A DNA stretch of 64,000 bases from Spirochaetia bacterium. GTDB taxonomy: Bacteria; Spirochaetota; Spirochaetia; SZUA-6; Bin103. A model generated the notes under the pieces. The model was not told where the DNA came from and ran no database searches. It saw nothing but the letters and a program-made list of their open reading frames with translations. Of this stretch, positions 5,167 to 39,819 are shown piece by piece (the first letter of the stretch is position 1; every line of letters starts with the position of its first letter). The position numbers and the translations under genes are program-made. The DNA lies in assembly GCA_965208575.1 (NCBI GenBank), contig CBDBOV010000005.1, positions 352,001 to 416,000 of the forward strand, in the 5' to 3' direction.

Positions 5167-5518
5167 GCCGAAGCAGCCTCCGGCTTCCGCGCGGACCTGT
5201 CAACACACGCGGCGGTTACTTCGAGACGGAGAATGCGCACGGCAATACCACCGTGGTGGTGCTCGCGGTTTCGTTCGCCTACATGAGGCAGCGGGCGAGG
5301 TCAGCCGCCGTGACCGTGCGATCGGCGCAGCGCGGCAAGGAAATCGGCCTCGTCCGCGCAGCCGAGCGCCGCCGCCAGCAGCGCTTGGCGTAGCCCATCT
5401 CGCGCGGACATGCAAACCGGACGTTCCAGATCCACAGAGCCGGGAACGATCGCATAAGCGTGAGATTGACAGTGTGCGGCGGGCATTGCAAAGTAATGTG
5501 ATCAGGGATTCTTGCCGC

Positions 5519-5611
5519 ATGCCGACCACCCTCGACCATAGCATTCAGCGCAGGCACCGGTTGACGCAGATGTCCCCCCCCCCGGCAACTCTTTATATGA
5601 CAAACCATTAA
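5519..5611 (+). CDS. Putative leader peptide (uORF E), MPTTLDHSIQRRHRLTQMSPPPATLYMTNH
   Basis: Follows TTGACA (5466-5471). Contains CACCGGTTGAC and C10 (5574-5583), as in the leaders of the other SBP loci. Confidence 0.45.
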   Translation: MPTTLDHSIQRRHRLTQMSPPPATLYMTNH

Positions 5612-5892
5612 CCGCTTCCGCTGATCGCCGCGTACGCGACCCCGAGCACGCCGTCGCCTTCACCACCGCCGTACCTGTCGGTGGCGCCGGCTACGGAATA
5701 CGGCGGTGCAAGGTGGTACTCAAAGAACCGCACGCGCGCGCGGCGTGAGCCCGGGTGAACCCGGTGAGTCACACGCCGCGCGCTTGCAGAGACTTGACTC
5801 AGACTGGCGGCCCGCGTTGCGGGTGCGAGAGTAGCCAGGGTAGCGGTAAGTCGCTCCGCAATACTCCAAGAGATCTACATACGGAGCAGCGT

Positions 5893-7689
5893 ATGAATAT
5901 TGCACAAATCACCAGGGCCTTCGCGGTTGCGCTGGTCGTGGTCCTGACCGCAACCGGCCTGTGGGCCACTGGCACGGAAGAGGCACCGGCAGCGGCCGCC
6001 GACAAGGAGTATGTGACCGATCCCACCACCGGCAAGGTGGTGGTGGCGCCACAGTACGGCGGGACAATTACCTTCGTCGACAACGGTTCCGCGGGTACGG
6101 TCACCGACTACTACGTGAGTGGGGCTGGCCCAAAGAACGTCCAGCTCTTCATGGAGAAGCTGGGTATTGCGAACTGGGCGATAGATCGGGACGTATGGCC
6201 CTATAACACACAGCACATCCCGGACTTTGCCTTGTCAGGGCGGCTGGCCGAAAGCTGGGAGCAACCCGACCTGGACACCATTATCTTCAAAATCCGGCAG
6301 GGCGTGCACTGGCATGACAAGCCACCGATGAACGGTCGGGAGTTGACCGCCGCGGACGTCGAATGGAGCTTTCATCGCCTGCTGGGACTGGGCAGCGGCT
6401 TCACCGAGCCCGCCCCAACGGTCTGGGCTCTGCCCCAATTCAGAACCAAGTCGGTAACCGCCACCGACCAGTATACGGTTGTCTTTGAGCTGGAGCCACC
6501 AGCCCCCTGGGCACTGAATCGGATCCTCCGTGGAGATAACACCGCCATACTGCCGCGCGAGGTAATCGAGCAATACGGCGACTATAATGATTGGCGGAAC
6601 GTGGTCGGCACCGGGCCCTTCATGTTGACTGACCACGTCGAGGGCACCTCCTGGACCTACGTCAAGAATCCCGACTACTGGGGATATGACGAAAAATACC
6701 CGGAGAACCGGCTGCCCTATGTTGACGAGATACAACGCCTGATATCGAAGGAACAAGCCACCATTCTGGCGATGATGAGAACGGGAAAGGCTGATTACAT
6801 CGGTTACGGCGGCGACACGCAGATTACTTCAATCGATGCGGCAACGAGCCTGCAGGAGACCAACCCGGACCTGAACCTGTGGCCATACTCATACCGTGCG
6901 GAGACGGCTATGGCCTTCAACACGCAGATATCGCCCTGGAACGACATCAGGGTACGCCGCGCAATACAGATGGCAATCGACCTTGAGACGATTAACCGGA
7001 CCTATCACCAGGGTTGGGCAAATCCGGCCGCTGCAGCGGCTCTAGGGGACGCCATGGTCGGGTATGTCACCCCATTTGAAGAGTGGCCCGACGATCTCAA
7101 GGGATACTATACCTATGACCCGGAACGGGCAGAAGCTTTGCTTGACGAGGCTGGATATCCGCGCGGCGCCGACGGCATTCGATTCGAAACAGTCTACGGT
7201 CACTTGGATCGCGGCGACTTCGATCTGGACTATTTCCAGATCGTCATGGAATACTTGCGTGCCATTGGTATTGATATAGAGGTGGAGAAACTTCCGGTAG
7301 CGCAGTGGGGGTCTTATATTAATAACCATCTGGGGGAAGGTCTGTTTCTTGCCGTACACAACGCCGACTACATAACCGCAATAGACGTTTTTTACTCGAC
7401 CAATGGATGGAACCCATCCAACGTCAACGACCCGGTTTTTGACGCCACAATGGACGCCTTCCGAGCCGCTACTGCAACCGAGGAGCAGCAGAGGCTGGTG
7501 CGGGAAGCAGTTATGCGCATAGCGGAGCAGCACTGGACCATAGCGGGACCGAGAGTTCCAAGTTTCATCGTCACCCAACCCTGGCTGGTGGGTTACAGCG
7601 GTGAAGTCGAGCTGGGGGAAATGGACCGTGCGATCATACTTTCCCGCCTCTGGATCGACCAGGACCTGAAGGCGGAAATGGGCTCGTGA
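5893..7689 (+). CDS. ABC transporter substrate-binding protein, family 5 (DppA/OppA-like), locus E
   Basis: Signal peptide ending LWA. Motifs LAESWE, IRQGVHWH, VGTGPF, VRRAIQMAID and C-terminal WIDQDLK. Confidence 0.92.
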   Translation: MNIAQITRAFAVALVVVLTATGLWATGTEEAPAAAADKEYVTDPTTGKVVVAPQYGGTITFVDNGSAGTVTDYYVSGAGPKNVQLFMEKLGIANWAIDRDVWPYNTQHIPDFALSGRLAESWEQPDLDTIIFKIRQGVHWHDKPPMNGRELTAADVEWSFHRLLGLGSGFTEPAPTVWALPQFRTKSVTATDQYTVVFELEPPAPWALNRILRGDNTAILPREVIEQYGDYNDWRNVVGTGPFMLTDHVEGTSWTYVKNPDYWGYDEKYPENRLPYVDEIQRLISKEQATILAMMRTGKADYIGYGGDTQITSIDAATSLQETNPDLNLWPYSYRAETAMAFNTQISPWNDIRVRRAIQMAIDLETINRTYHQGWANPAAAAALGDAMVGYVTPFEEWPDDLKGYYTYDPERAEALLDEAGYPRGADGIRFETVYGHLDRGDFDLDYFQIVMEYLRAIGIDIEVEKLPVAQWGSYINNHLGEGLFLAVHNADYITAIDVFYSTNGWNPSNVNDPVFDATMDAFRAATATEEQQRLVREAVMRIAEQHWTIAGPRVPSFIVTQPWLVGYSGEVELGEMDRAIILSRLWIDQDLKAEMGS

Positions 7690-7712
7690 GGAACTCGTTG
7701 TAGACGATCCGC

Positions 7713-7795
7713 AGTGGACTCCGCCTTTTTGGGCGGGGTCCACGAATCCCACGAGACTCACGGAGGGGCCGGGAGCGTTGCGCTCTCCGGCTCCC
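7713..7795 (+). other. Intercistronic hairpins between SBP and permease
   Basis: gtggactccgcc/ggcggggtccac and gccgggagcg/cgctctccggc inverted repeats. Confidence 0.55.
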
Positions 7796-7810
7796 ATTTA
7801 GTACGAGGAT

Positions 7811-8767
7811 ATGAGAGCCTACATCATCCGACGGCTGCTGCTGGTCATCCCCACGCTACTCATATTGAGCATCCTGGTCTTTCTCTCGGTCCGCTTCATC
7901 CCCGGCGATGTAATAGATGCGATGTTTGGTGACCTGCAATACATGAGTGTGGGTATCGACCGTGCAGCGTTCGAGCGCCGGCTGGGACTGGACGTGCCGG
8001 TCTACGTGCAGTACGGACGCTGGATAGGGGGTGTTTTCCTGCACGGCACGCTTGGCGAATCGATGATGTACGGTTGGCCGGTAGAGGAGAAGTTGCTCGG
8101 CAGATTGCCGTTGACCATGCAGCTTGGCGTCATGGCAATCGTAGTGGGGCTGTTGATCGCCCTCCCCGTCGGCATCTACTCGGCGATTCGCCAGGATACC
8201 GCCGCCGACTACCTGGGGCGCTCCATCGCCATCGTTGGCCTGGCTACGCCGAACTTCTGGCTGGGACTCATGGTCATGCTGTTCCCGGCACTCTGGTGGG
8301 GCTGGTCGCCACCGGTACAGTGGGTTCCGTTCGCCGAAGACCCGCTGGGGAACCTGGGGGTGCTCCTCATTCCCAGCCTGATTCTGGGAACGGCATCGGC
8401 TGCAGCCACCATGCGGATGACGCGCACCATGATGCTGGAGGTGCTGCGGCAGGACTACATACGGACGGCCTGGTCCAAGGGTCTGAGGGAGCGGGTCGTC
8501 GTCATGCGGCACGCCATCAAGAATGCCCTCATCCCGGTTGTCACGCTGATCGGTCTGCAGTTGCCGATCCTGGTGGGGGGCGCGGTTATCATGGAGAACA
8601 TATTCAACCTGCCGGGGCTCGGTCGTCTCATGGTGCTTGCACTCGAGCAGAGAGACTACCCGGTGGTGTCCGGAGTAAACCTGTTATTCGGCACCGCGGT
8701 GGTGCTGTTCAATCTCCTGATCGACCTGTTCTACCCTTTCCTGGATCCAAGAGTCCGCTATCAATGA
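7811..8767 (+). CDS. Peptide/nickel ABC permease (DppB-like)
   Basis: MRAYIIRRLL, QDYIRTAWSKGL and IFNLPGLGRL motifs. Confidence 0.93.
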   Translation: MRAYIIRRLLLVIPTLLILSILVFLSVRFIPGDVIDAMFGDLQYMSVGIDRAAFERRLGLDVPVYVQYGRWIGGVFLHGTLGESMMYGWPVEEKLLGRLPLTMQLGVMAIVVGLLIALPVGIYSAIRQDTAADYLGRSIAIVGLATPNFWLGLMVMLFPALWWGWSPPVQWVPFAEDPLGNLGVLLIPSLILGTASAAATMRMTRTMMLEVLRQDYIRTAWSKGLRERVVVMRHAIKNALIPVVTLIGLQLPILVGGAVIMENIFNLPGLGRLMVLALEQRDYPVVSGVNLLFGTAVVLFNLLIDLFYPFLDPRVRYQ

Positions 8768-8783
8768 GAGACAAGGAGCGATC

Positions 8784-9716
8784 ATGAGTAACGCTTCCGG
8801 TACGCGGACAACGGCACGCGCGCCGAGGAGACATACCGGTCTGGGCGATTTCTTCATCAGGCTGTGGACAGAGAAGCCGCTCGGCAGTGCGTGCGGGATT
8901 ATCGTATTGCTGTTGATTGTGGTGGCCGTCTTCGCCGATGTTCTGGCCCCCTATGGCTATACGGAAATACACCTGGCGGACAGGCTGCAGGGCGCATCGG
9001 CACGGTATCTGCTGGGTACCGACCAGTTGGGGCGAGACTACCTGAGCCGCCTCATCTACGGGGCTCGTCTTTCGATGCTCGTCGGGCTGTCCGCGACCAC
9101 GCTCAATGTCGTCGTCGCGGTCCTCGTCGGCGGCATTTCCGGATTCCTCGGTGGTAAGCTGGACCTGGGTGTGCAGAGATTCGTCGATGCCTGGATGGCT
9201 TTTCCGGGCCTGCTCCTGCTGCTGACCATCATGTCCATATTGGGGCAGGGTGTGCCCCAGATGATCCTGGTCCTGGGAATATCAGGAGGCATCGGTGGCT
9301 CGAGAGTAGTCAGAGGCGCCGTCATCACCGTAAAGGAGAATGACTATTTTCAGGCGGCGGCGTCGATTGGCTCGGCAAAATGGAGAGCATTTGCGCGCCA
9401 CGTTCTGCCCAATATCGGGGCGCCGCTGATCATCATCTTCAGCATCAACATCGGCGGGGCGATCATGAGTGAGGCTTCGCTGAGCTTCCTCGGATTCGGT
9501 CTGCCTCCCGAGTTTCCCAGTTGGGGTACTCTGCTCAGTTGGGAAGGCCGGCGCTACATGGAGCAGGCGCCATGGCTCGCCCTGTGGCCGGGTCTCTGCC
9601 TGACCCTCGTGGTGTACAGTCTGAACATGTTCGGCGATGCCATGCGCGACCTGCTCGACCCGCGGCTCAGGGGCGGCGGCGGGCGGCTGGGCGCCAACGC
9701 CGCCACGCCGGTTTAG
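8784..9716 (+). CDS. Peptide/nickel ABC permease (DppC-like)
   Basis: LLGTDQLGRD, RHVLPN, EASLSFLGFG and GDAMRDLLDPR motifs. Confidence 0.93.
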   Translation: MSNASGTRTTARAPRRHTGLGDFFIRLWTEKPLGSACGIIVLLLIVVAVFADVLAPYGYTEIHLADRLQGASARYLLGTDQLGRDYLSRLIYGARLSMLVGLSATTLNVVVAVLVGGISGFLGGKLDLGVQRFVDAWMAFPGLLLLLTIMSILGQGVPQMILVLGISGGIGGSRVVRGAVITVKENDYFQAAASIGSAKWRAFARHVLPNIGAPLIIIFSINIGGAIMSEASLSFLGFGLPPEFPSWGTLLSWEGRRYMEQAPWLALWPGLCLTLVVYSLNMFGDAMRDLLDPRLRGGGGRLGANAATPV

Positions 9717-9887: not shown

Positions 9888-10568
9888 TCAGGCGGTTCGT
9901 CTCTCAAGCCGCGAGACCCAGCAATCGAAGTGGGGACACTCGGCGCGCATGGTCTCCAAGCCAATCGCGCGTGCGGCGAGAGCACCCAACCGCGGCTTCT
10001 CATAGCCAGGGACGAGCGCCTCGATTCGCTTGGACGGGGCGGTAACGGGTGAATCGTCGATCGCTTCAGGGGTTGGAAAAGCAGCCCGGATCTCCTGAAA
10101 GGAGCTCGCCAATTCGGGCCGATCAATCCCTATGGCGAACCGCTCGCAATCGCTGAACAGCAGGGCCTCGAACTCGTGCATCATCACGAACGGAATGAAC
10201 CGACGTTCGTCAAACCTGGATCCCATGGCAAGATGGATGTCAGCGGCGAGCGCGTCTTCGACAGCCTTCGCTCTCTGTGGATACGGGAGATTGGCTGCCG
10301 TAGCGCGCCCCGGCCACGCCTTGGAACCGCTTTGTGGCATACCATAGTAGTCCGCCATGGTGGTGGCGATGATCGTCTTGTCTTCCTTCAAGTGCCGCAC
10401 GATTTCACGACAGACCGCCGGCCAGGCCGTGCCTCTGCCGCGTCTCCGAGCCTTTCCGTACAGGCGGGCCCACACTTGCGAGAAGCCTTGTCCGTAGAGG
10501 TGAGAGGCGAGCAGTTCGTTGACAAATAGCTCTTCTGTTTGACCTTCCACATGAACACCCAGGCGCAT
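9888..10568 (-). CDS. DUF4276 family (TOPRIM-like) protein
   Basis: VHVEGQTEE, ADYYG, MHEFEALLF, PSKRI and CPHF motifs. TGATG overlap with the upstream ATPase. Confidence 0.82.
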   Translation of the reverse strand: MRLGVHVEGQTEELFVNELLASHLYGQGFSQVWARLYGKARRRGRGTAWPAVCREIVRHLKEDKTIIATTMADYYGMPQSGSKAWPGRATAANLPYPQRAKAVEDALAADIHLAMGSRFDERRFIPFVMMHEFEALLFSDCERFAIGIDRPELASSFQEIRAAFPTPEAIDDSPVTAPSKRIEALVPGYEKPRLGALAARAIGLETMRAECPHFDCWVSRLERRTA

Positions 10569-11668
10569 CACTCCGAAAATCTCCGATCCGTGCGCTCCGG
10601 GACAGGCCGCCCGCCGAATTCGTTCTTTTCCCAAAGTTCCCCCAGGCTGTAGTCTTCAAGCCACGATCGGAGCTTGTCATCATCCAGCCGGTTGAGCTTC
10701 GTCGCTCCGTTCACGCGGTCAGCCACTATCACATCTTCCGGATCGAAATGATCCAGCAGCACCGGCGACTGCGTTGCGACGATGATCTGAGACTCCACAG
10801 CCGCGTGCTTGAGCATGGAGGCCAGCAGGGTGATAGCGAAGGGATGCAGACCAAGCTCCGGCTCGTCAAGGAGCACGACCGGCGGGCGGAGCGACGCCGG
10901 CTGGAGCAGAAGCGTGGCAAGGGTAATGAATCGGAGCGAACCATCGGACAGGGACGACGCGTCGAAGTAAGCGTCCGACCCGACGTGCCGCCACTCAAGC
11001 CGGATCTTGTCTTCGTTCAGCTCCAACGGCTCCATGGAGAAGTCTTCGAAGAAAGGGGCGGTCAGTCGGATCGTGTTGCGAATCTGCGTGTAAGCTCCCT
11101 CGTGTTTCTTGCGCAGCAAGTATAGGAATGCCGCAAGGTTGGACCCATCGGGTCGCAACCGGCGGTTGTCGTGTAAGTCGGCTGTTTTTTTTATTGGGGA
11201 GGAGGGGCTGGTGTCGTGAAAGTGGTAGAGATGCCAGTGCTCGATCCGGTAACGAAGAAACTCAAGAAGAGGAGCGACTCCAGGCCGTGGCACAAGATGC
11301 TCCATGAAGTCCGCAGGCAACTCGGTCTCGGCAACCCAAATCCTAGGAAACAATCGATCATCAGACCCATGGCGCATGTCGACACAGAAGTCAGTCAGTT
11401 CGTCCGTGAATTTCACTCTGAACCTCATCGTGGGCGTCGTCTTGGATCCAAAGTGGAGTAGACGGTCGGCACCGCCCGCGCGTAGAACGTGATCCGACAT
11501 CTGATTCATGCTCAAGACAGCAGTGCGCAGGAGCCCGAGCGCGCCGAGGAAGTTCGACTTGCCTGATCCGTTGGCGCCGATCAGGACGTTAAGAGAGCGC
11601 AGTTGTAGCCCCGGCAACTCGGCAATGCTCCTGAAGCCTTCAATCGTGATCGTGCGGATCAAGGACAT
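10568..11668 (-). CDS. AAA/ABC-type ATPase (AAA_21/AAA_15-like)
   Basis: IEGFRSI, Walker A GANGSGKSN, signature LSDGS, Walker B LLDEPELGLHP, ATQS. Confidence 0.9.
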   Translation of the reverse strand: MSLIRTITIEGFRSIAELPGLQLRSLNVLIGANGSGKSNFLGALGLLRTAVLSMNQMSDHVLRAGGADRLLHFGSKTTPTMRFRVKFTDELTDFCVDMRHGSDDRLFPRIWVAETELPADFMEHLVPRPGVAPLLEFLRYRIEHWHLYHFHDTSPSSPIKKTADLHDNRRLRPDGSNLAAFLYLLRKKHEGAYTQIRNTIRLTAPFFEDFSMEPLELNEDKIRLEWRHVGSDAYFDASSLSDGSLRFITLATLLLQPASLRPPVVLLDEPELGLHPFAITLLASMLKHAAVESQIIVATQSPVLLDHFDPEDVIVADRVNGATKLNRLDDDKLRSWLEDYSLGELWEKNEFGGRPVPERTDRRFSE

Positions 11669-11711
11669 GTTCACCAATACCTCAATTGGCTCGGGCAGGA
11701 CGTAGTCTTCA

Positions 11712-19941: not shown

Positions 19942-21771
19942 TCAGAATCCCATTTCTCGCTTCAGATCCTGGTCGATCCAGAGGCGGGCGAGGATGGGAT
20001 GATACGTCAGGTCTCCTAGCGAGTATTCACCGTTATAGCCCTTGACCCACGGATTGTTCGCCTGAAACTGTGGCGCCAGAGGACCCCAAATCTGCATGTG
20101 TTGCTCGAGCACGAACATATTGTACGCTTTCGCTGCCTCGAACTGCTCCTCTTTGGTCGTAGCAGCGTAATAGGCATCGGAGGCCGCGTCCAGCACGGAG
20201 GTGTCGATTGCGCATGGGTCGCTACAGGCCAAGTATTCGCGGGGGAACAGATTGCTATCGCGATGAGTCTGCATGGCCCAGACAGCAGCCGGATGGCCCA
20301 TGTCGCCAGTGGCCATTTCATACGCGGTTTCTGCCTTGGCAGCCACCCAAGTCCCCGTGTCGGCAATACGGGTCGTTATATCAACGCCAATATCAGCCCA
20401 GTACCCGGCGGCGACTTCCGTATAGCCCAAGTCTATGACGTCTCGGTGCAAATACTCTGCCGTGAATCGAATTCCGTCCGCGCCGCGCGGATAGCCTGCC
20501 TCATCCAGGAGCTTCTCGGCACCCTCCGGGTCATACCTGTAGTATTGCTGGAGCTCTTCTGGCCACTCTTCAAATGGGGTGTAGTGCCCCTTGGCGCTAA
20601 TCCACGCAGGGTCTTCCCAGTCTGAAAAACCGCCAAAGTAGGTATCGTCAATCGTCTCCAGATCGAGTGCCATCTGCAGTGCGTGGCGCACCCTGACGTC
20701 GTCAAATGGCGCGTTGCGAATGTTCAGAGTAAAGACCTGAAACGCCCGCTGGTAGTAACTGTACACCTCGATTTCCGGGTTGGTCCTCTGGATGCTCCTT
20801 ATCACGTCCATGTTTCCTATGTCAGCGACCCCTGCGTGTTGTATGATATCAATCTTACCCGTACGCAGTGCCGAGATACGGGTTGCTTCTTCTGCCATGA
20901 GGGGGGCCCTTATCTCGTCAACATAGGGCAAGCGGTTCTCCGGGTATTTCTCGTCGTAGTCCCAGAAGTCAGGATTCCTGGTAAAGGTCTTGGAGACGCC
21001 CTCGACATACTCGGTCAGGATAAGAGGCCCGGTGCCGACCACGTTCTTCCAGTCCTCATAGTTGCCGTAATGCTCGATTACGTCGCGGGGTAGTATCCAA
21101 CTCTGGCTTTCACCGAGGATCGGTTGTAGCGCATCGAGGTATGGCTCAGTGAGCTTCATAACAACCGTATATCTGTCGGTGGCCTCTATCGATTCCCATG
21201 GCAGGTTGAACGTGGGGCCGGCCTGAGCGGGAGGTTCGGTGAAGTCCCCCTGAGCGGTCTGGCGCTGATAGGAATAGACGACATCATCGGCGGTCAGCTC
21301 CCGACCGTTTACCAACCGACTGGCCTCACTGTCCGGATCAAGAGCGTAGTGAACGCCCTGGCGGATGTGAAAGACGTAGGTCACCGGGTCGGGCGTCTCC
21401 CAGCTTTCCGCCAGATTCCCGGTCAGGACGTGGGTAGGAACGAAATTGTCCGTCCAGTCGAATACTTCCCTATCCAGTGCCCAGTCCCCGATGGCGAGCT
21501 TCTCATTGACACCGTCTATGAGCCAGCCCGCTTCGAAGCCAACAGCAAAGGGGTCTACATTGTCGCTTACCCTACCACCCCAGCCGTAGGTCAGTGTCCC
21601 GCCGTACTCCGGCGCGGTCACCATCTTTCCGGTGGCGGGGTCCATCACCATTTCCTTCTCCATGGCGGCTGCCGGCTCCTGTTCGGCGGCCGGGCTTGCC
21701 CACAGGCCGGTCGCGGCCACACCGAAACCGATCAGTACCGCCAGGGTCTTTCGCAAGACTGCGTATTGCAT
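19942..21771 (-). CDS. Family-5 ABC substrate-binding protein, unit A
   Basis: SD aggagg, signal peptide MQYAVLRK...GLWA, family-5 motifs, ends WIDQDLKREMGF. Confidence 0.92.
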   Translation of the reverse strand: MQYAVLRKTLAVLIGFGVAATGLWASPAAEQEPAAAMEKEMVMDPATGKMVTAPEYGGTLTYGWGGRVSDNVDPFAVGFEAGWLIDGVNEKLAIGDWALDREVFDWTDNFVPTHVLTGNLAESWETPDPVTYVFHIRQGVHYALDPDSEASRLVNGRELTADDVVYSYQRQTAQGDFTEPPAQAGPTFNLPWESIEATDRYTVVMKLTEPYLDALQPILGESQSWILPRDVIEHYGNYEDWKNVVGTGPLILTEYVEGVSKTFTRNPDFWDYDEKYPENRLPYVDEIRAPLMAEEATRISALRTGKIDIIQHAGVADIGNMDVIRSIQRTNPEIEVYSYYQRAFQVFTLNIRNAPFDDVRVRHALQMALDLETIDDTYFGGFSDWEDPAWISAKGHYTPFEEWPEELQQYYRYDPEGAEKLLDEAGYPRGADGIRFTAEYLHRDVIDLGYTEVAAGYWADIGVDITTRIADTGTWVAAKAETAYEMATGDMGHPAAVWAMQTHRDSNLFPREYLACSDPCAIDTSVLDAASDAYYAATTKEEQFEAAKAYNMFVLEQHMQIWGPLAPQFQANNPWVKGYNGEYSLGDLTYHPILARLWIDQDLKREMGF

Positions 21772-22062
21772 CTTTGCCTCCTGCAATTCGAGAGTGCCGG
21801 TCTCACTGTGCATCCGTCGCCCACTCTCGACGCGCACCGGCAATCTCCGGTGCCCGGAAAGCGACGGCGACAGCCCCGAGCTACATCGACATCCGGCACC
21901 TCCTTGAACGCGCGCGCGGACCTGAGCCCGGAGCACCGCGTGAGGCGGTGTGCTGCGGCGTAGCGAAAGTCAGGGACCGGCAACGTCGGCGGTGCGGTGT
22001 GCAGGCGGTCGGAGGAGCGGCGGTGCGGCCGAAGCGGCGCGCGGGGCGATCAGCCGGAGCGA

Positions 22063-22164
22063 CTATTGCTTGTGATTCAGGTATTTGCCGGGGGGGGGTA
22101 GGACACACCGGGTCCCGTTAACCGGTGGCGTCCTCAAGTGCCTGTGGTATTGCATCGTCCACAT
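22063..22164 (-). CDS. Putative leader peptide (uORF A), MWTMQYHRHLRTPPVNGTRCVLPPPGKYLNHKQ
   Basis: Start and stop positions are conserved in copies B and C. The C9 tract encodes PPP. Confidence 0.6.
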   Translation of the reverse strand: MWTMQYHRHLRTPPVNGTRCVLPPPGKYLNHKQ

Positions 22165-22188
22165 AAGCCTGTTCTCCGACAGAGGGGC

Positions 22189-22217
22189 ATCATAAGCCAC
22201 GCGCAACGGGCTGTCAA
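22189..22217 (-). promoter_or_regulatory. Sigma70-like promoter TTGACA-N17-TATGAT
   Basis: Near-consensus match at the same position in units B, C and D. Confidence 0.8.
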
Positions 22218-27130: not shown

Positions 27131-27232
27131 TTATTGCTTGTGATTCAAGTATTTGCCGGAGGGGGGGTAGGACACACCAATCCCGTCAACCGGTGGCGTC
27201 CTCAAGTGCTTCTGGTAGTGCATCGTCCACAT
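27131..27232 (-). CDS. Putative leader peptide (uORF B), MWTMHYQKHLRTPPVDGIGVSYPPSGKYLNHKQ
   Basis: Same length as uORF A despite compensating indels. Confidence 0.6.
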   Translation of the reverse strand: MWTMHYQKHLRTPPVDGIGVSYPPSGKYLNHKQ

Positions 27233-27258
27233 AAGCCTTTTCGCCGACAGGAGGGCCA

Positions 27259-27287
27259 AGTCTATTCCACGCGCAACGAGCTGTCAA
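27259..27287 (-). promoter_or_regulatory. Sigma70-like promoter TTGACA-N17-TAGACT
   Basis: Consensus-like and position-conserved. Confidence 0.8.
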
Positions 27288-28974: not shown

Positions 28975-30763
28975 TCAGAATCCCATTTCTCGCTTCAGAT
29001 CCTGGTCAATCCAGAGGCGGGCGAGGATGGTATGAAACAGAAAGTTTCCCATCCTGGTTTCACCGTTAAAACCTTTCACCCACGGTTGGCTGGCCTGATA
29101 ACTTGGAGCCAGAGGAAGCCCTATGTTATTGTGCTGCGTCATTAACGCCATACCAAACTGTTTTGCCGCCATTATCTGATCATCGATGCTGGTGGCGGCG
29201 AAAAAGGCAGCTTGGGCGGCGGCCAGATCAGGGTTCTCGACTCCGCCCATCCATTCACTTTGGTAAGGGACCTCGGAGCCATACGCCGACATGCTCGGGG
29301 TCGGGATCTCCCTGGCCATGGCGCCATAAATCGACTCATAGTTTTGTTCTGACCAATAACCGGTCAAAGTCCCCCAGTCGGCCGTACCAATCGTTACATC
29401 AACGCCAATATCATCCCAGTAGCCGGCGGCTATTTCTATAATGCCCAGATCTGCGATGTCGCGGTGCAGATGTTCGAACTTGAAGCGGACGCCGTCGGCG
29501 CCGCGCGGATATCCTGCCTCATCAAGGAGCCTCTCCGCACCTTCCGGGTCGTAGGTGTAGTATTGCTTGAGTTCTTCGGGCCACTCTTCCCATTCGGTGT
29601 AATACCCCTTGGCGCCAAGGTAGCGAGGTGGGTGCCACTGGGCGAAACCGCCATAGTAGGTATCGTTGATCGTCTCCAGGTCCAATGCCATCTGCAGTGC
29701 GTGGCGTACTCTGATGTCGTCAAAGGGGGCGTTGCGTATGTTCAGACTGAAAGCATCCGCCCGTTGGAAAAATGGCCATATCGCGATCTCGGGGTCGGTC
29801 CGCTGCAGGCTCCTTACCACGTCGATGGACTTTATCTCATTACCAGCGAGGCGTATCATATCAATCTTACCCGAGCGCAGTGCCGATAAGCGGGTCGCTT
29901 CTTCCGCTATATGCAGGGCCATCAGCTCGTCGACATAGGGCAGGCGGTTGTCCGGGTATTTTGGGTCGTAGCCCCAGTAGTCAGGATTCTTGGCATAGGT
30001 CTTGGAGACGCCTTCGACATAGTCAGTCAGAATGAGGGGCCCGGTGCCGACCACGTTCTGCCAATCCTTGTAGTCGCCGTATTGCTCGATTACCTCGGGG
30101 GGGTAATATCCAGAACAAGTGTTCGGCGATGATAGCCTCTAGCGCACCGAGGGAGGGCTCCATCAACTTCATGACAACCGTGTATTCGTCGGTGTCCTCG
30201 ATCGATTCCCATGGCAGATCGACAGCGGCAGTGGTACGTACAGGACGTTCGGTAAAGTCACCCTGAGCGGTAATGCGCTGATAGGTATAGACGACATCAT
30301 CGGCAGTGAGCTCGCGCCCGTTCACCGGTGCCTTGTTATGCCAGTGAACGCCCTGACGGATGTGAAAGACGTACGTTAGTGGGTCGGGCGTTTCCCAGCT
30401 TTCCGCCAGCTCCCCGGTGTAAGTAAACAGAGGAACGTAAGGCCCATCAAAGCCGAATTCTTTCCTATCCAGACCCCAGTCCCCGACGGCGAGTCTCTCA
30501 TTGACACCGTCTATGAGAAAGCCCGCATAGGCGCCGGCACTAAAGGGGTCGGCAGTTTCGCCAATCAAGACATACGAAACGATCAACGTCCCGCCGTACT
30601 CTGGCGCGGTCACCATCTTGCCGGTGGCGGGGTCCCTCACCATCTCCTTCTCCGTGGCGGCGGCCGGCTCCTCTTCGCTGGCCGGGCTTGCCCACAGGCC
30701 GGTGGCGGCCAGACCGAAACCGATCAGTACCGCCAGGATGTTTCGCAAGACTGCGTATTGCAT
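28975..30763 (-). pseudogene. Family-5 SBP of unit C, split by a +1 frameshift in a C7 tract
   Basis: Two ORFs (30023-30763 and 28975-30054). WILPP|EVIEQ is broken at G7 30097-30103, where unit B has G6. Confidence 0.85.
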
Positions 30764-31042: not shown

Positions 31043-31147
31043 TTATTGCTTGTGATTCAAGTATATACCGGGGGGGGGGGGGTAGGACACACCTATCCCG
31101 TCAACCGGTGGCGTCCTCAAGTGCTTCTGGTATTGCACCGTGAACAT
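31043..31147 (-). CDS. Putative leader peptide (uORF C), MFTVQYQKHLRTPPVDGIGVSYPPPPGIYLNHKQ
   Basis: The C13 tract keeps the frame, adding one codon. Confidence 0.6.
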   Translation of the reverse strand: MFTVQYQKHLRTPPVDGIGVSYPPPPGIYLNHKQ

Positions 31148-31171
31148 AAGCCTTTTCGCCGACAGAGAACG

Positions 31172-31200
31172 AGTCTATTCCACGCGCAACGAGCTGTCAA
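31172..31200 (-). promoter_or_regulatory. Sigma70-like promoter TTGACA-N17-TAGACT
   Basis: Same as unit B. Confidence 0.8.
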
Positions 31201-39089: not shown

Positions 39090-39600
39090 GATCACTACCC
39101 ATGTCTCGCTTCAGGTCCTGGTCGATCCAGATGCGGGAGAATACGGCATTACGGTCGCCCCATCCCAGGTCTATTTCACCGTTGTAACCCTTGACCCAGC
39201 TCTGATTCACGTTGAACTGCGGAGGCTTGGGACTCCACACCAGCGCGTGGATCTGTGCCAGGTACAGATCGATCTCTCTGACCACCCTCTGCTGCTCCTC
39301 GACGTTGTCAGCGGCTTGAGCCGCATCAAACAAGGCGTCAAACTGCGGGTCCTGGAGTCCGGTTGTGCTCGCTCCGGTGCCGGATTTCCCTACCGAGCTC
39401 GAGTGGTACCCTCTTATCGCTTCCAATGCATCGAAGTCGTAGGATGACACCGTACTTGACATACCCTTATAGACAAGCCCTTGCGCAGCGGCGATCCAAG
39501 CAGGTCGGTCCACGACAATGACCTCGACATCAACGCCAATCTTCTTCCAGTACTCGGCGGCCAATTGATAGTAGTCGACATCCAAGGTGTCAATGATTAT
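39090..39600 (-). pseudogene. C-terminal remnant of a family-5 SBP, unit D
   Basis: YWKKIGVDV, WVKGYNGE and RIWIDQDLKRDMG. The 5' part of the gene and the stop codon are lost. Confidence 0.85.
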
Positions 39601-39637
39601 CAAGTCGAAGGCGTCTCCATGACCTTCACCAGGAATC

Positions 39638-39819
39638 GGAGCGAGCGCTTATTGATTCAGAGCTAATTAGTTGCGGGGTACCGCCGGGGGGGGGTAGGAC
39701 AGGCCGAGCTGTCAACCGGTGGTGTGTGCTCGGTGTGGTCGATTGCTTATGGTTGTGCATCATCCGTCCAGCGGCCCCGTGGCAACAGCCACCATATACC
39801 ACGGTGCAACTGCCGTCAA
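39638..39819 (-). promoter_or_regulatory. Divergent leader copy D: TTGACG-N17-TATGGT promoter and uORF MMHNHKQ...HRLTARPVLPPPG with a C9 tract
   Basis: Promoter at 39791-39819, CACCGGTTGAC, and TCCTAC9GG (G9 at 39686-39694). Confidence 0.65.

Follow-up and report, generated by a model that had tools for sequence, protein, structure and literature searches.

A poly-C tract in a leader open reading frame as a candidate frame switch upstream of family-5 solute-binding protein operons in an uncultured sponge symbiont

Background

Why should the leader of a nutrient-uptake operon carry a run of cytosines inside a short open reading frame (ORF), and what could such a run control? The question is raised by a 64-kb stretch of DNA from an uncultured spirochaete-like bacterium (the window; contig CBDBOV010000005.1, positions 352,001 to 416,000), in which five loci of family-5 solute-binding proteins (SBPs), here named A to E, each begin with a promoter-like box, a short upstream ORF (uORF) and a poly-C tract. 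An earlier note on this DNA saw in them a leader-peptide attenuator with consecutive proline codons that stall the ribosome, possibly tuned by homopolymer slippage. It did not contain the rest of the leader: a three-frame layout 3' of the tract, a long open frame, a second uORF and a hairpin. With these parts included, the explanation we consider best, at a probability of about 0.45, is that the leader is translated and that its tract works as a switch of reading frame, probably linked to transcription termination by Rho.

Results and discussion

One leader cassette in front of a large transporter family

The pattern CACCGGTTRAC-N(8-30)-C7 has exactly five matches in the window, which are loci A to E, and none in 100 dinucleotide-preserving shuffles. 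Direct reading of all five loci reveals a TTGAC(A/G) box, a 17-nt spacer and a -10-like hexamer (TATGAT in A, TAGACT in B and C, TATGGT in D and a weak CAAAGT in E), followed by an ATG-initiated ORF that enters the C run. The run itself is C9 in A, C7-T-C2 in B, C13 in C, C9 in D and C10 in E, with GG directly 3' of each, and the genes downstream encode SBP_bac_5 proteins accompanied by permeases. Shuffles and direct reading thus confirm the order of elements claimed earlier for the five loci. Their status as a special set did not survive: a leader profile built from 23 seeds has 96 matches (nhmmer) in the source genome (6.5 Mb, 67% GC; G000 in the coordinates below). In this genome, tblastn with SBP-E returns 127 matches of more than 450 amino acids, mostly at 42-52% identity, and 63 of these 127 SBP paralogs have at least a partial leader within 1.1 kb upstream. 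Own genome and five same-genus genomes together provide 89 unique leader copies of 450-1000 nt, among which 85 contain the tract and 84 an ATG-initiated ORF reading into it. Many of the SBP paralogs are clustered on contigs C3-C6, an extreme expansion of one transporter family.

Beyond the source genome, BLAST with leader E gives up to 18 scored matches per genome in five of ten other genomes of the genus and weak matches (E-values 8e-5 to 8e-4) in 4 of 13 genomes of a second genus of the family; there were no matches in the rest of the order. A 22-nt core motif, with up to two mismatches allowed, occurs in none of 400 other sampled genomes of the phylum, and three other metagenome-assembled genomes (MAGs) encoding SBP homologs have no leader at the loci examined. 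The sequencing runs that hold window sequence are sponge and reef metagenomes. In one of these MAGs (L021, OZ242383.1), an SBP 80% identical to SBP-E lies behind an AT-rich, unrelated upstream region, which may reflect a leader-less gene transfer between sponge symbionts. At loci L043 and L045 (OY761144.1, labelled Dehalococcoidia), SBP homologs are preceded, at a distance of about 575-655 nt, by a TTGACR box with a G8-G9 run 5 nt behind it, perhaps an unrelated leader of another phylum that likewise bears a homopolymer.

A leader reading frame that opens into the tract

From 5' to 3', the leader comprises a promoter-like TTGACA-17-TAnnnT site, an ATG, a first uORF (uORF1), the C tract, a block of about 120 nt, a spacer, a second uORF (uORF2) with its hairpin and the SBP gene. 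At locus E (+ strand), the promoter-like site occupies 5466..5494 (TTGACA at 5466-5471, the 17-nt spacer, then CAAAGT at 5489-5494), uORF1 5519..5611, the C10 tract 5574..5583 and the C-rich, G-poor post-tract block 5584..5712, which we delimited by conservation, composition and three-frame layout. The uORF1 peptide of this locus is MPTTLDHSIQRRHRLTQMSPPPATLYMTNH, currently in a frame ending early at TAA. There follow uORF2 (5713..5748; GTG start, VVLKEPHARAA and a stop), whose 3' half is the 5' arm of a GC hairpin with the stop on top (GCGCGCGGCGTG ... CACGCCGCGCGC, 5732..5783, approximate limits), and the SBP-E gene (SBP_bac_5, 5893..7689), after which two permease genes lie at 7811-9716.

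In the family as a whole, the uORF1 ATG lies about 15 nt past the promoter-like site and about 50 nt past the TTGACA box, and a G-rich motif resembling a Shine-Dalgarno (SD) sequence precedes it. uORF1 has about 20 codons before the tract, with the consensus M-x-MKRHDDSQRSDRLAVTQPVH. The post-tract block is 85-90% identical among paralogs, and likewise across species; the proteins of paralogs sharing a block at this level are only about 45-50% identical. The spacer after the block varies from 41 to 706 nt between copies, and a further 136-193 nt of structured RNA separate the uORF2 stop and hairpin from the SD sequence and start of the SBP gene. Loci A to C represent a subtype with a diverged block, in which AAGGAGG followed by ATG TCG ATG TAG (in B, ATG TAG) replaces uORF2.

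Is uORF1 a reading frame at all? Our test presupposes no ORF: it takes the first ATG 44-63 nt past the -35 box, which is present in 79 of the 85 tract-bearing copies. The frame of this ATG is free of stops up to the tract in 73 of the 79, as against 7 and 2 for the other two frames; the total number of stops between ATG and tract is 11 in the ATG frame, 128 and 137 in the others. Furthermore, an SD-like motif is found 5-17 nt upstream of the ATG in 55 of 79 copies versus 3 of 79 control windows. The best reading of this pattern is that uORF1 is a translated leader ORF, and the claim of a family-wide leader ORF is upheld. The peptide is another matter. The ratio of nonsynonymous to synonymous change (pN/pS) is 0.72 in uORF1, versus 0.98 and 0.82 in shifted frames, and third-position change is not in excess. 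On the dN/dS check proposed earlier, the peptide appears barely constrained at the sequence level.

The earlier note had relied on loci A to C, whose uORF1 peptides are MWTMQYHRHLRTPPVNGTRCVLPPPGKYLNHKQ, MWTMHYQKHLRTPPVDGIGVSYPPSGKYLNHKQ and MFTVQYQKHLRTPPVDGIGVSYPPPPGIYLNHKQ, respectively, each followed by a stop and sharing the ending (K/I)YLNHKQ. The uORF is 102 nt long in both A and B, where A has one additional base before the tract and B one inside it, and 105 nt in C, one codon more. Start, stop, YLNHKQ ending, compensating indels and extra codon are all as the earlier note had described them. It had further argued from this layout for selection on the frame, and here the layout stands but has little weight: over about 445 nt, the A-C leaders have 88-92% identity, versus 75% DNA identity (58% protein identity) between the A and B coding regions, so that shared start, stop and frame say little by themselves. 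Gene conversion would account for such a difference as readily as selection. The A-C leaders are overlapped by long antisense ORFs; an antisense gene at this place was dropped as a candidate solely on its flat codon-position GC in the codon-aligned frame.

A homopolymer kept at one position

The tract is a pure C run of 5-55 nt (median 9) at a fixed position in the leader, always on the sense strand. Under a first-order Markov model, 377 runs of at least eight C or G would be expected in the genome; 55 are seen. Of these, 35 lie in leader matches or within 40 nt of one, all 35 being sense-strand C, and a census of the flanks of the 55 runs reveals a shared motif. Homopolymers are purged genome-wide except at the leader tract. 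CCC accounts for only 32% of proline codons in SBP genes, yet the leader runs are pure C, which argues that the homopolymer itself is kept and not a proline run at the peptide level alone. The tract persists in five further species of the genus, and both its length and the frame that follows it vary between paralogs and between species. Outside the leader family, we observed a C19 and a C21 run (C5:1098574-1098592 and C5:712418-712438), the first directly after a promoter-like TTGACA-N17-CATAAT site.

These counts bear directly on the pure proline-sensing attenuator favoured at the outset. According to this view, consecutive CCC codons stall ribosomes when EF-P activity or Pro-tRNA is low, and read-through into the SBP gene depends on where the ribosome stands; copies would differ in tract length by neutral drift or sequencing error, and the post-tract frame would be irrelevant. 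That uORF1 is kept open into the tract agrees with this, as does the presence of an efp gene and of two tRNA-Pro(GGG) genes. In one leader copy (G000 C6:904247), both T interruptions of the tract fall at third codon positions, keeping the prolines. There is also precedent in mgtL and in EF-P-dependent coupling (PMC12360218, PMC5021804). At least three consecutive prolines are encoded in 50 of 84 copies. However, 25 copies encode PP and nine a single proline or none, and with fewer than three prolines in 34 of 84 copies an EF-P stall is unlikely to be what defines the family; the poly-proline claim is borne out in part. A proline sensor also leaves unexplained the pure homopolymer and, from the sections that follow, two conserved early stops beside one long open frame, the ends of the long ORFs at uORF2 and a frame that depends on tract length. 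Nor did we find an alternative terminator/antiterminator structure near the tract. We regard a purely proline-sensing leader as unlikely.

Three frames after the tract

What happens to a ribosome that leaves the tract would depend on the frame in which it does so. We compared the three frames in 51 main-type copies, that is, those of locus E type. One of them, which we call frame c, is open for at least 150 nt in 50 of the 51 copies, with a median of 344 nt; the other two reach a stop within 60 nt of the tract in 48 and 46 of the 51, respectively. Few positions of the block are as well conserved as the two early stops. At locus E (5584..5712), they are the near-invariant TAA in CATTAACC and TGA in GCTGATCGCC, and frame c is open. 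They are also kept through change: TAA and TAG replace each other, and where TGA is lost, in locus B, TAG is the next codon.

The far end of frame c is equally well defined. Among 48 ATG-initiated ORFs with a recognizable uORF2 downstream, 22 are short and a further 22 extend precisely to the uORF2 stop; three end at a TGA overlapping the uORF2 ATG and one ends elsewhere. Of 28 copies, 17 have a distance of 0 modulo 3 between an anchor in the block and uORF2, nine a distance of 2 and two a distance of 1. Between the same points, the 19 copies of the source genome contain 10, 39 and 30 stops in frames c, c+1 and c+2.

A frame that is kept open could encode a protein, and one might regard the long ORF, of 125-200 amino acids, as a phase-variable gene for a disordered basic small protein, with the SBP gene being just the next in the operon. 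Homopolymers in the 5' coding region are the commonest form of contingency locus, and 119 unnamed protein clusters in public metagenome assemblies match the long ORF, most of the aligned clusters spanning from MKRHDD... to ...MILKEPHARAA. The frame, however, lacks the marks of a protein. Its pN/pS is 1.17 in the conserved block and 0.87 in the spacer, its GC is flat over the three codon positions (.68/.63/.70, versus.60/.43/.69 in the SBP gene), and the spacer varies in length over the range given above. The long ORF has no family matches in Pfam, and an AlphaFold2 model from a 43-sequence alignment shows no secondary structure (predicted local distance difference test score 56; predicted template modelling score 0.11). 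Frame c thus appears to be without protein-level constraint, as far as its sequence tells, and we consider a phase-variable protein highly improbable. The long ORFs have been called as hypothetical proteins in assemblies and probably should not be.

Tract length and reading frame

If the tract selects the frame, then its length and the state of the ORF should be linked, and they are. Where the longest pure C run is eight or shorter, 28 ORFs are long and 10 short; with runs of 9-12, eight are long and 20 short; with runs of 13 or more, six are long and 12 short. In sum, the long ORF is found in 28 of 38 copies at up to 8 C and in 14 of 46 at 9 C or more. Over all lengths, 29 of 50 main-type ATG-initiated ORFs are currently in frame c. 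That the shorter tracts mostly sit in the long frame suggests that this is the preferred state wherever the tract is stable. The scatter among tracts of at least 9 C is less specific, since population heterogeneity, transcriptional slippage or assembly error would each produce it. Tuning by slippage, as suggested in the earlier note, is plausible in view of the range of lengths and of post-tract frames that differ between copies.

Could the cassette have no dedicated function? Gene conversion or recent duplication would then homogenize the leader, and the C run would be a by-product of slippage, its length variation being partly assembly error. The high identity of the A-C leaders relative to their coding regions agrees with this, and recombination is evident in tandem partial copies of the leader, which we observed directly upstream of some full leaders (G000 C4:537555-538067, G000 C6:950785-951324 and L005:1476-2141). 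They consist of two to four units of about 120 nt, each with the promoter and the 5' part of uORF1, and suggest unequal recombination among leaders. Our tract lengths come from metagenome assemblies, and homopolymer calls in long-read assemblies are error-prone. Yet C/G runs are purged from this genome and 35 of them remain at one fixed position and on one strand, the tract persists in five further species of the genus, and neither frame-specific stops nor a length-dependent frame is expected from conversion alone. This makes a leader without function very unlikely in our estimation.

The second uORF and its hairpin

The consensus of uORF2 is M(I/V)LKEPHARAA followed by a stop, behind a strong GGAGG SD sequence. 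It runs into a 12-bp GC hairpin: the 5' arm is made of its last codons, and its stop sits at the hairpin top. The genome has 45 copies, 42 of which lie 136-193 nt upstream of an SBP start; the start codon is ATG, GTG or TTG in 38 of the 45, an SD-like motif is present in 40, and the stop codon, TGA or TAA, is conserved. The uORF2/hairpin stretch shows the highest contig depth in each of the four sponge runs, DNA and RNA libraries included. The high depth at 5720-5803 is due to the repetition of the element in the genome and is not evidence of expression.

RNA structure and base composition around the tract

If the leader were an attenuator of the classical kind, we would expect alternative structures around the tract. 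RNAalifold, applied to 38 sequences covering 48 nt before and 78 nt after the tract, yields two pairs at -1 kcal/mol and thus no consensus structure, and no terminator/antiterminator pair was found around the tract. The Rfam check that the earlier note had called for returned no family at gathering scores over the whole window; a scan of 5400-5950 with E-values up to 10 gives chance matches to mir-3960 and NEAT1 only. Among minimum-energy folds computed for 22 whole leaders, nine leave the tract wholly unpaired, and the others pair it only in part. G-rich partners pair with it partially at most, in some cases a GGGG upstream of the uORF1 ATG.

The composition of the region is strongly skewed. 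Over the 78 nt from the tract start, the mean C content is 35.9 and the mean G content 15.2; 60 of 85 copies have more than twice as much C as G, and the excess of C extends for about 200 nt. The genome encodes Rho (699 bits, over cut-off). According to PMC12360218, ribosomes on a uORF can shield Rho loading sites, uORF-controlled Rho termination is established, and so is Rho-based phase variation. PMC5021804 describes how polyproline together with Rho utilization (rut) sites uncouples translation from transcription without EF-P, with expression about 30-fold lower.

The same composition could serve an element that is never translated, in which poly-C and C-rich RNA act as a site for Rho loading, for a protein or for a G-rich small RNA and the ORFs are incidental. 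The C over G skew and a tract left single-stranded in predicted folds suit such an element, as does a block that is far better conserved than the proteins and has no protein-level signature. A 6-bp ACCGGT helix in uORF1 adds modest covariation: its positions are paired in 89.6% of alignment cells versus 86.7% in shuffled ones, with nine double-change cells. The helix lies close to a suggestion of the earlier note, that CACCGGTTGAC acts at the DNA or RNA level; in D and E this motif is indeed read as HRLT, in a frame different from that of A-C, and the helix lends the suggestion modest support. A variable leader homopolymer is also a known small RNA target (PMC8295292). Untranslated RNA, however, does not account for an ATG frame with less than a tenth of the stops seen in either of the other two, for the conserved ATG and SD-like motif, for a frame c open in 50 of 51 copies with both others closing within 60 nt, or for stops kept through changes between TAA, TAG and TGA; and it finds neither an Rfam match nor a consensus structure to lean on. 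We judge an untranslated element to be distinctly unlikely.

An effect at the DNA level was considered as well, namely a promoter-spacing switch of the Bordetella fim type, in which the C run would space an activator site (ACCGGT-N13-ACCGGT) from a downstream -10. Some copies do have a TTTATAC motif 3' of the tract. In many copies, however, it is replaced by ACTTTTTCGAACC, and its TATAC would be spaced at least 26-29 nt from TTGACG. No conserved -10 was found downstream of the tract, and the conserved TTGACA-17-TAnnnT promoter lies about 85-100 nt upstream of it. Such a switch is barely credible here.

A model for the leader, and what weighs against it

From the anatomy, open frames, stop layout, base composition and length-frame link, all of which are read directly in the DNA, we infer translation itself, a role for Rho, an ON/OFF outcome and actual switching. 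Each locus would hold one copy of a leader cassette, 450-1000 nt long and specific to the genus, which precedes family-5 SBP/ATP-binding cassette transporter operons and is transcribed from a sigma-70-like promoter. Ribosomes would start about 15 nt later, at the invariant ATG of uORF1, and read some 20 codons into the C tract, whose length would set their exit frame. In two frames they would meet a near-invariant stop within 60 nt. In frame c they would continue for a median of 344 nt through C-rich, G-poor leader and terminate in frame at the uORF2 stop (MILKEPHARAA) or at the TGA overlapping the uORF2 ATG.

According to this model, the act of translating and not the peptide would decide the expression of the SBP operon. 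The likeliest routes would be the shielding of C-rich RNA from Rho and the opening of the hairpin: an early stop in either of the other frames may expose the C-rich RNA to Rho, and frame c translation through uORF2 and hairpin may permit transcription or translation of the operon. Tracts of up to 8 C would be mostly fixed in the long frame; those of at least 9 C would scatter over the three frames by DNA or RNA slippage and would serve as rheostats or contingency switches. In the copies that encode them, at least three consecutive prolines may add an EF-P or Pro-tRNA input.

Several points weigh against this model. The leader copies are paralogs and orthologs and not independent, so that our counts overstate independent support, and the three-frame test covered the 51 main-type copies, the A-C subtype having a different downstream block. 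Homopolymer length errors in long-read metagenome assemblies alone could scatter the frame at 9 C or more. Public reads bring little relief: two RNA and two DNA runs, compared with 5300-7800, consist of short assembled contigs that give no cover of 5468-5551 and no indels. The strong SD sequence of uORF2 may allow its translation regardless of uORF1, which would weaken any coupling between the two; the hairpin is without a U tract and its role is putative; and the ACCGGT covariation, modest as it is, leaves an RNA-level role for that segment of uORF1. Finally, Rho sites are not reliably predictable, least of all in an uncultured spirochaete-like lineage.

A more far-reaching form of the frame-switch model is possible, if doubtful: a symbiont contingency switch in which poly-C in a non-protein leader ORF picks the frame, more than 50 transporter operons turn on and off independently, and uptake diversity becomes heritable and combinatorial within a population. 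A bolder variant would have tracts of at least 9 C, about the length of the RNA-DNA hybrid, acting as analogue rheostats through transcriptional slippage. This would explain why only tracts of up to 8 C need frame c in the DNA (28/38 versus 14/46).

The loci of the window

All of loci A to D are on the minus strand. At locus A, a predicted promoter-like site, from direct reading, comprises TTGACA at 22212-22217, a 17-nt spacer and TATGAT at 22189-22194, and its TTGAC box aligns across paralog leaders. uORF1 (22063..22164) has 33 codons from ATG to TAG and contains the C9 tract (22090..22098, sense strand). The mini-ORF ATG TCG ATG TAG is at 21881..21892, 3' of AAGGAGG, where main-type leaders have uORF2. 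The SBP-A gene (SBP_bac_5, 19942..21771) has its true start at MQYAVLRKTLAVLIGFGVAATGLW, 446 nt past the -35 box.

Locus B (27131..27287) has its -35 box at 27282-27287, uORF1 at 27131-27232 and the C7-T-C2 tract at 27158-27167; in locus C (31043..31200), the corresponding positions are 31195-31200, 31043-31147 and, for the C13 tract, 31070-31082. The SBP-C gene (28975-30763, minus strand) is split into two frames near 30101-30102, by a frameshift or a sequencing error. Locus D (39626..39819) comprises a TTGACG box at 39814-39819, uORF1 at 39626-39763 and the C9 tract at 39686-39694. Its leader is fused directly to an SBP 3' remnant of about 165 last codons (39097-39591, minus strand), and the region 39097-39819 is a deletion remnant in a locally lower-GC stretch. 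Between two transporter loci, at 9888-11677 (minus strand), adjoining DUF4276 and AAA_21 (AbiEii-like family ATPase) genes may represent a defence or toxin-antitoxin-like pair.

Comparison with known systems

One parallel is with the contingency loci of Neisseria, Haemophilus, Campylobacter and Helicobacter, in which a homopolymer near the 5' end of an ORF varies in length between copies and one of three frames is open. Here too, a slippable C run is present at a conserved position, and a change in its length predicts ON or OFF in silico (50/51 for the open frame; 48 and 46 of 51 for the closed ones). However, the ORF that is shifted is a non-protein leader ORF upstream, and any effect on the SBP would be indirect, by polarity or structure. 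A further difference is that the leaders here precede dozens of nutrient-uptake operons in a non-pathogenic symbiont. The vlp-type families of Mycoplasma and the C-stretch of Bordetella fim share with our leaders a conserved homopolymer-bearing 5' region in front of diverging mature proteins. In those systems, the tract lies in the promoter spacer, whereas ours is part of a uORF, about 85-100 nt past the -10-like box.

If the frame-switch model is true, it joins slippage-based phase variation with uORF/Rho leader control, on a scale of dozens of operons per genome and in an uncultured sponge symbiont that is not a pathogen. In the open-access literature, to which our search was confined, we found neither this pairing nor the leader arrangement described. 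Contingency loci could then work through the translation of a meaningless ORF, and symbionts would have a means to diversify or economize a repertoire of 127 SBP paralogs. The device would be a compact, portable cassette: an ATG, a C tract, two early stops, a long open frame and the uORF2 hairpin.

A stochastic leader switch that decides Rho termination before an operon is found in E. coli fim and in the C. difficile flgB switch (PMC12360218). There, a recombinase inverts DNA and exposes a rut site in one orientation; here, slippage of a homopolymer would act through translation. In H. pylori tlpB, a length-variable G-repeat in the leader tunes expression, the repeat being an untranslated pairing site for the small RNA RepG (PMC8295292); our tract is inside an open ORF.

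The leader ORFs of tnaC, speFL, cruR, corL and hisL, which lie at C-rich RNA where the ribosome shields a Rho site (PMC12360218), resemble uORF1 in layout. The rho gene and C-rich, G-poor RNA of at least about 70 nt in or after the uORF are both present in our case. What those leaders sense, by way of a specific peptide, is a small molecule or charged tRNA; the peptide here is almost unconstrained, and what varies as input appears to be the frame that the homopolymer sets. The mgtL and mgtP leaders of Salmonella mgtA and mgtCBR, finally, place a short ORF with proline codons in a long 5' leader, and together with EF-P coupling they offer a case where the progress of the ribosome is proposed to decide transporter transcription with Rho involved (PMC12360218, PMC5021804). 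There is no sequence or Rfam relationship between these leaders and ours. The prolines here come from a pure, length-variable C run, with fewer than three in 34 of 84 copies; the design here also includes the post-run frame, a second uORF and a hairpin; and the element occurs tens of times per genome here and once there.

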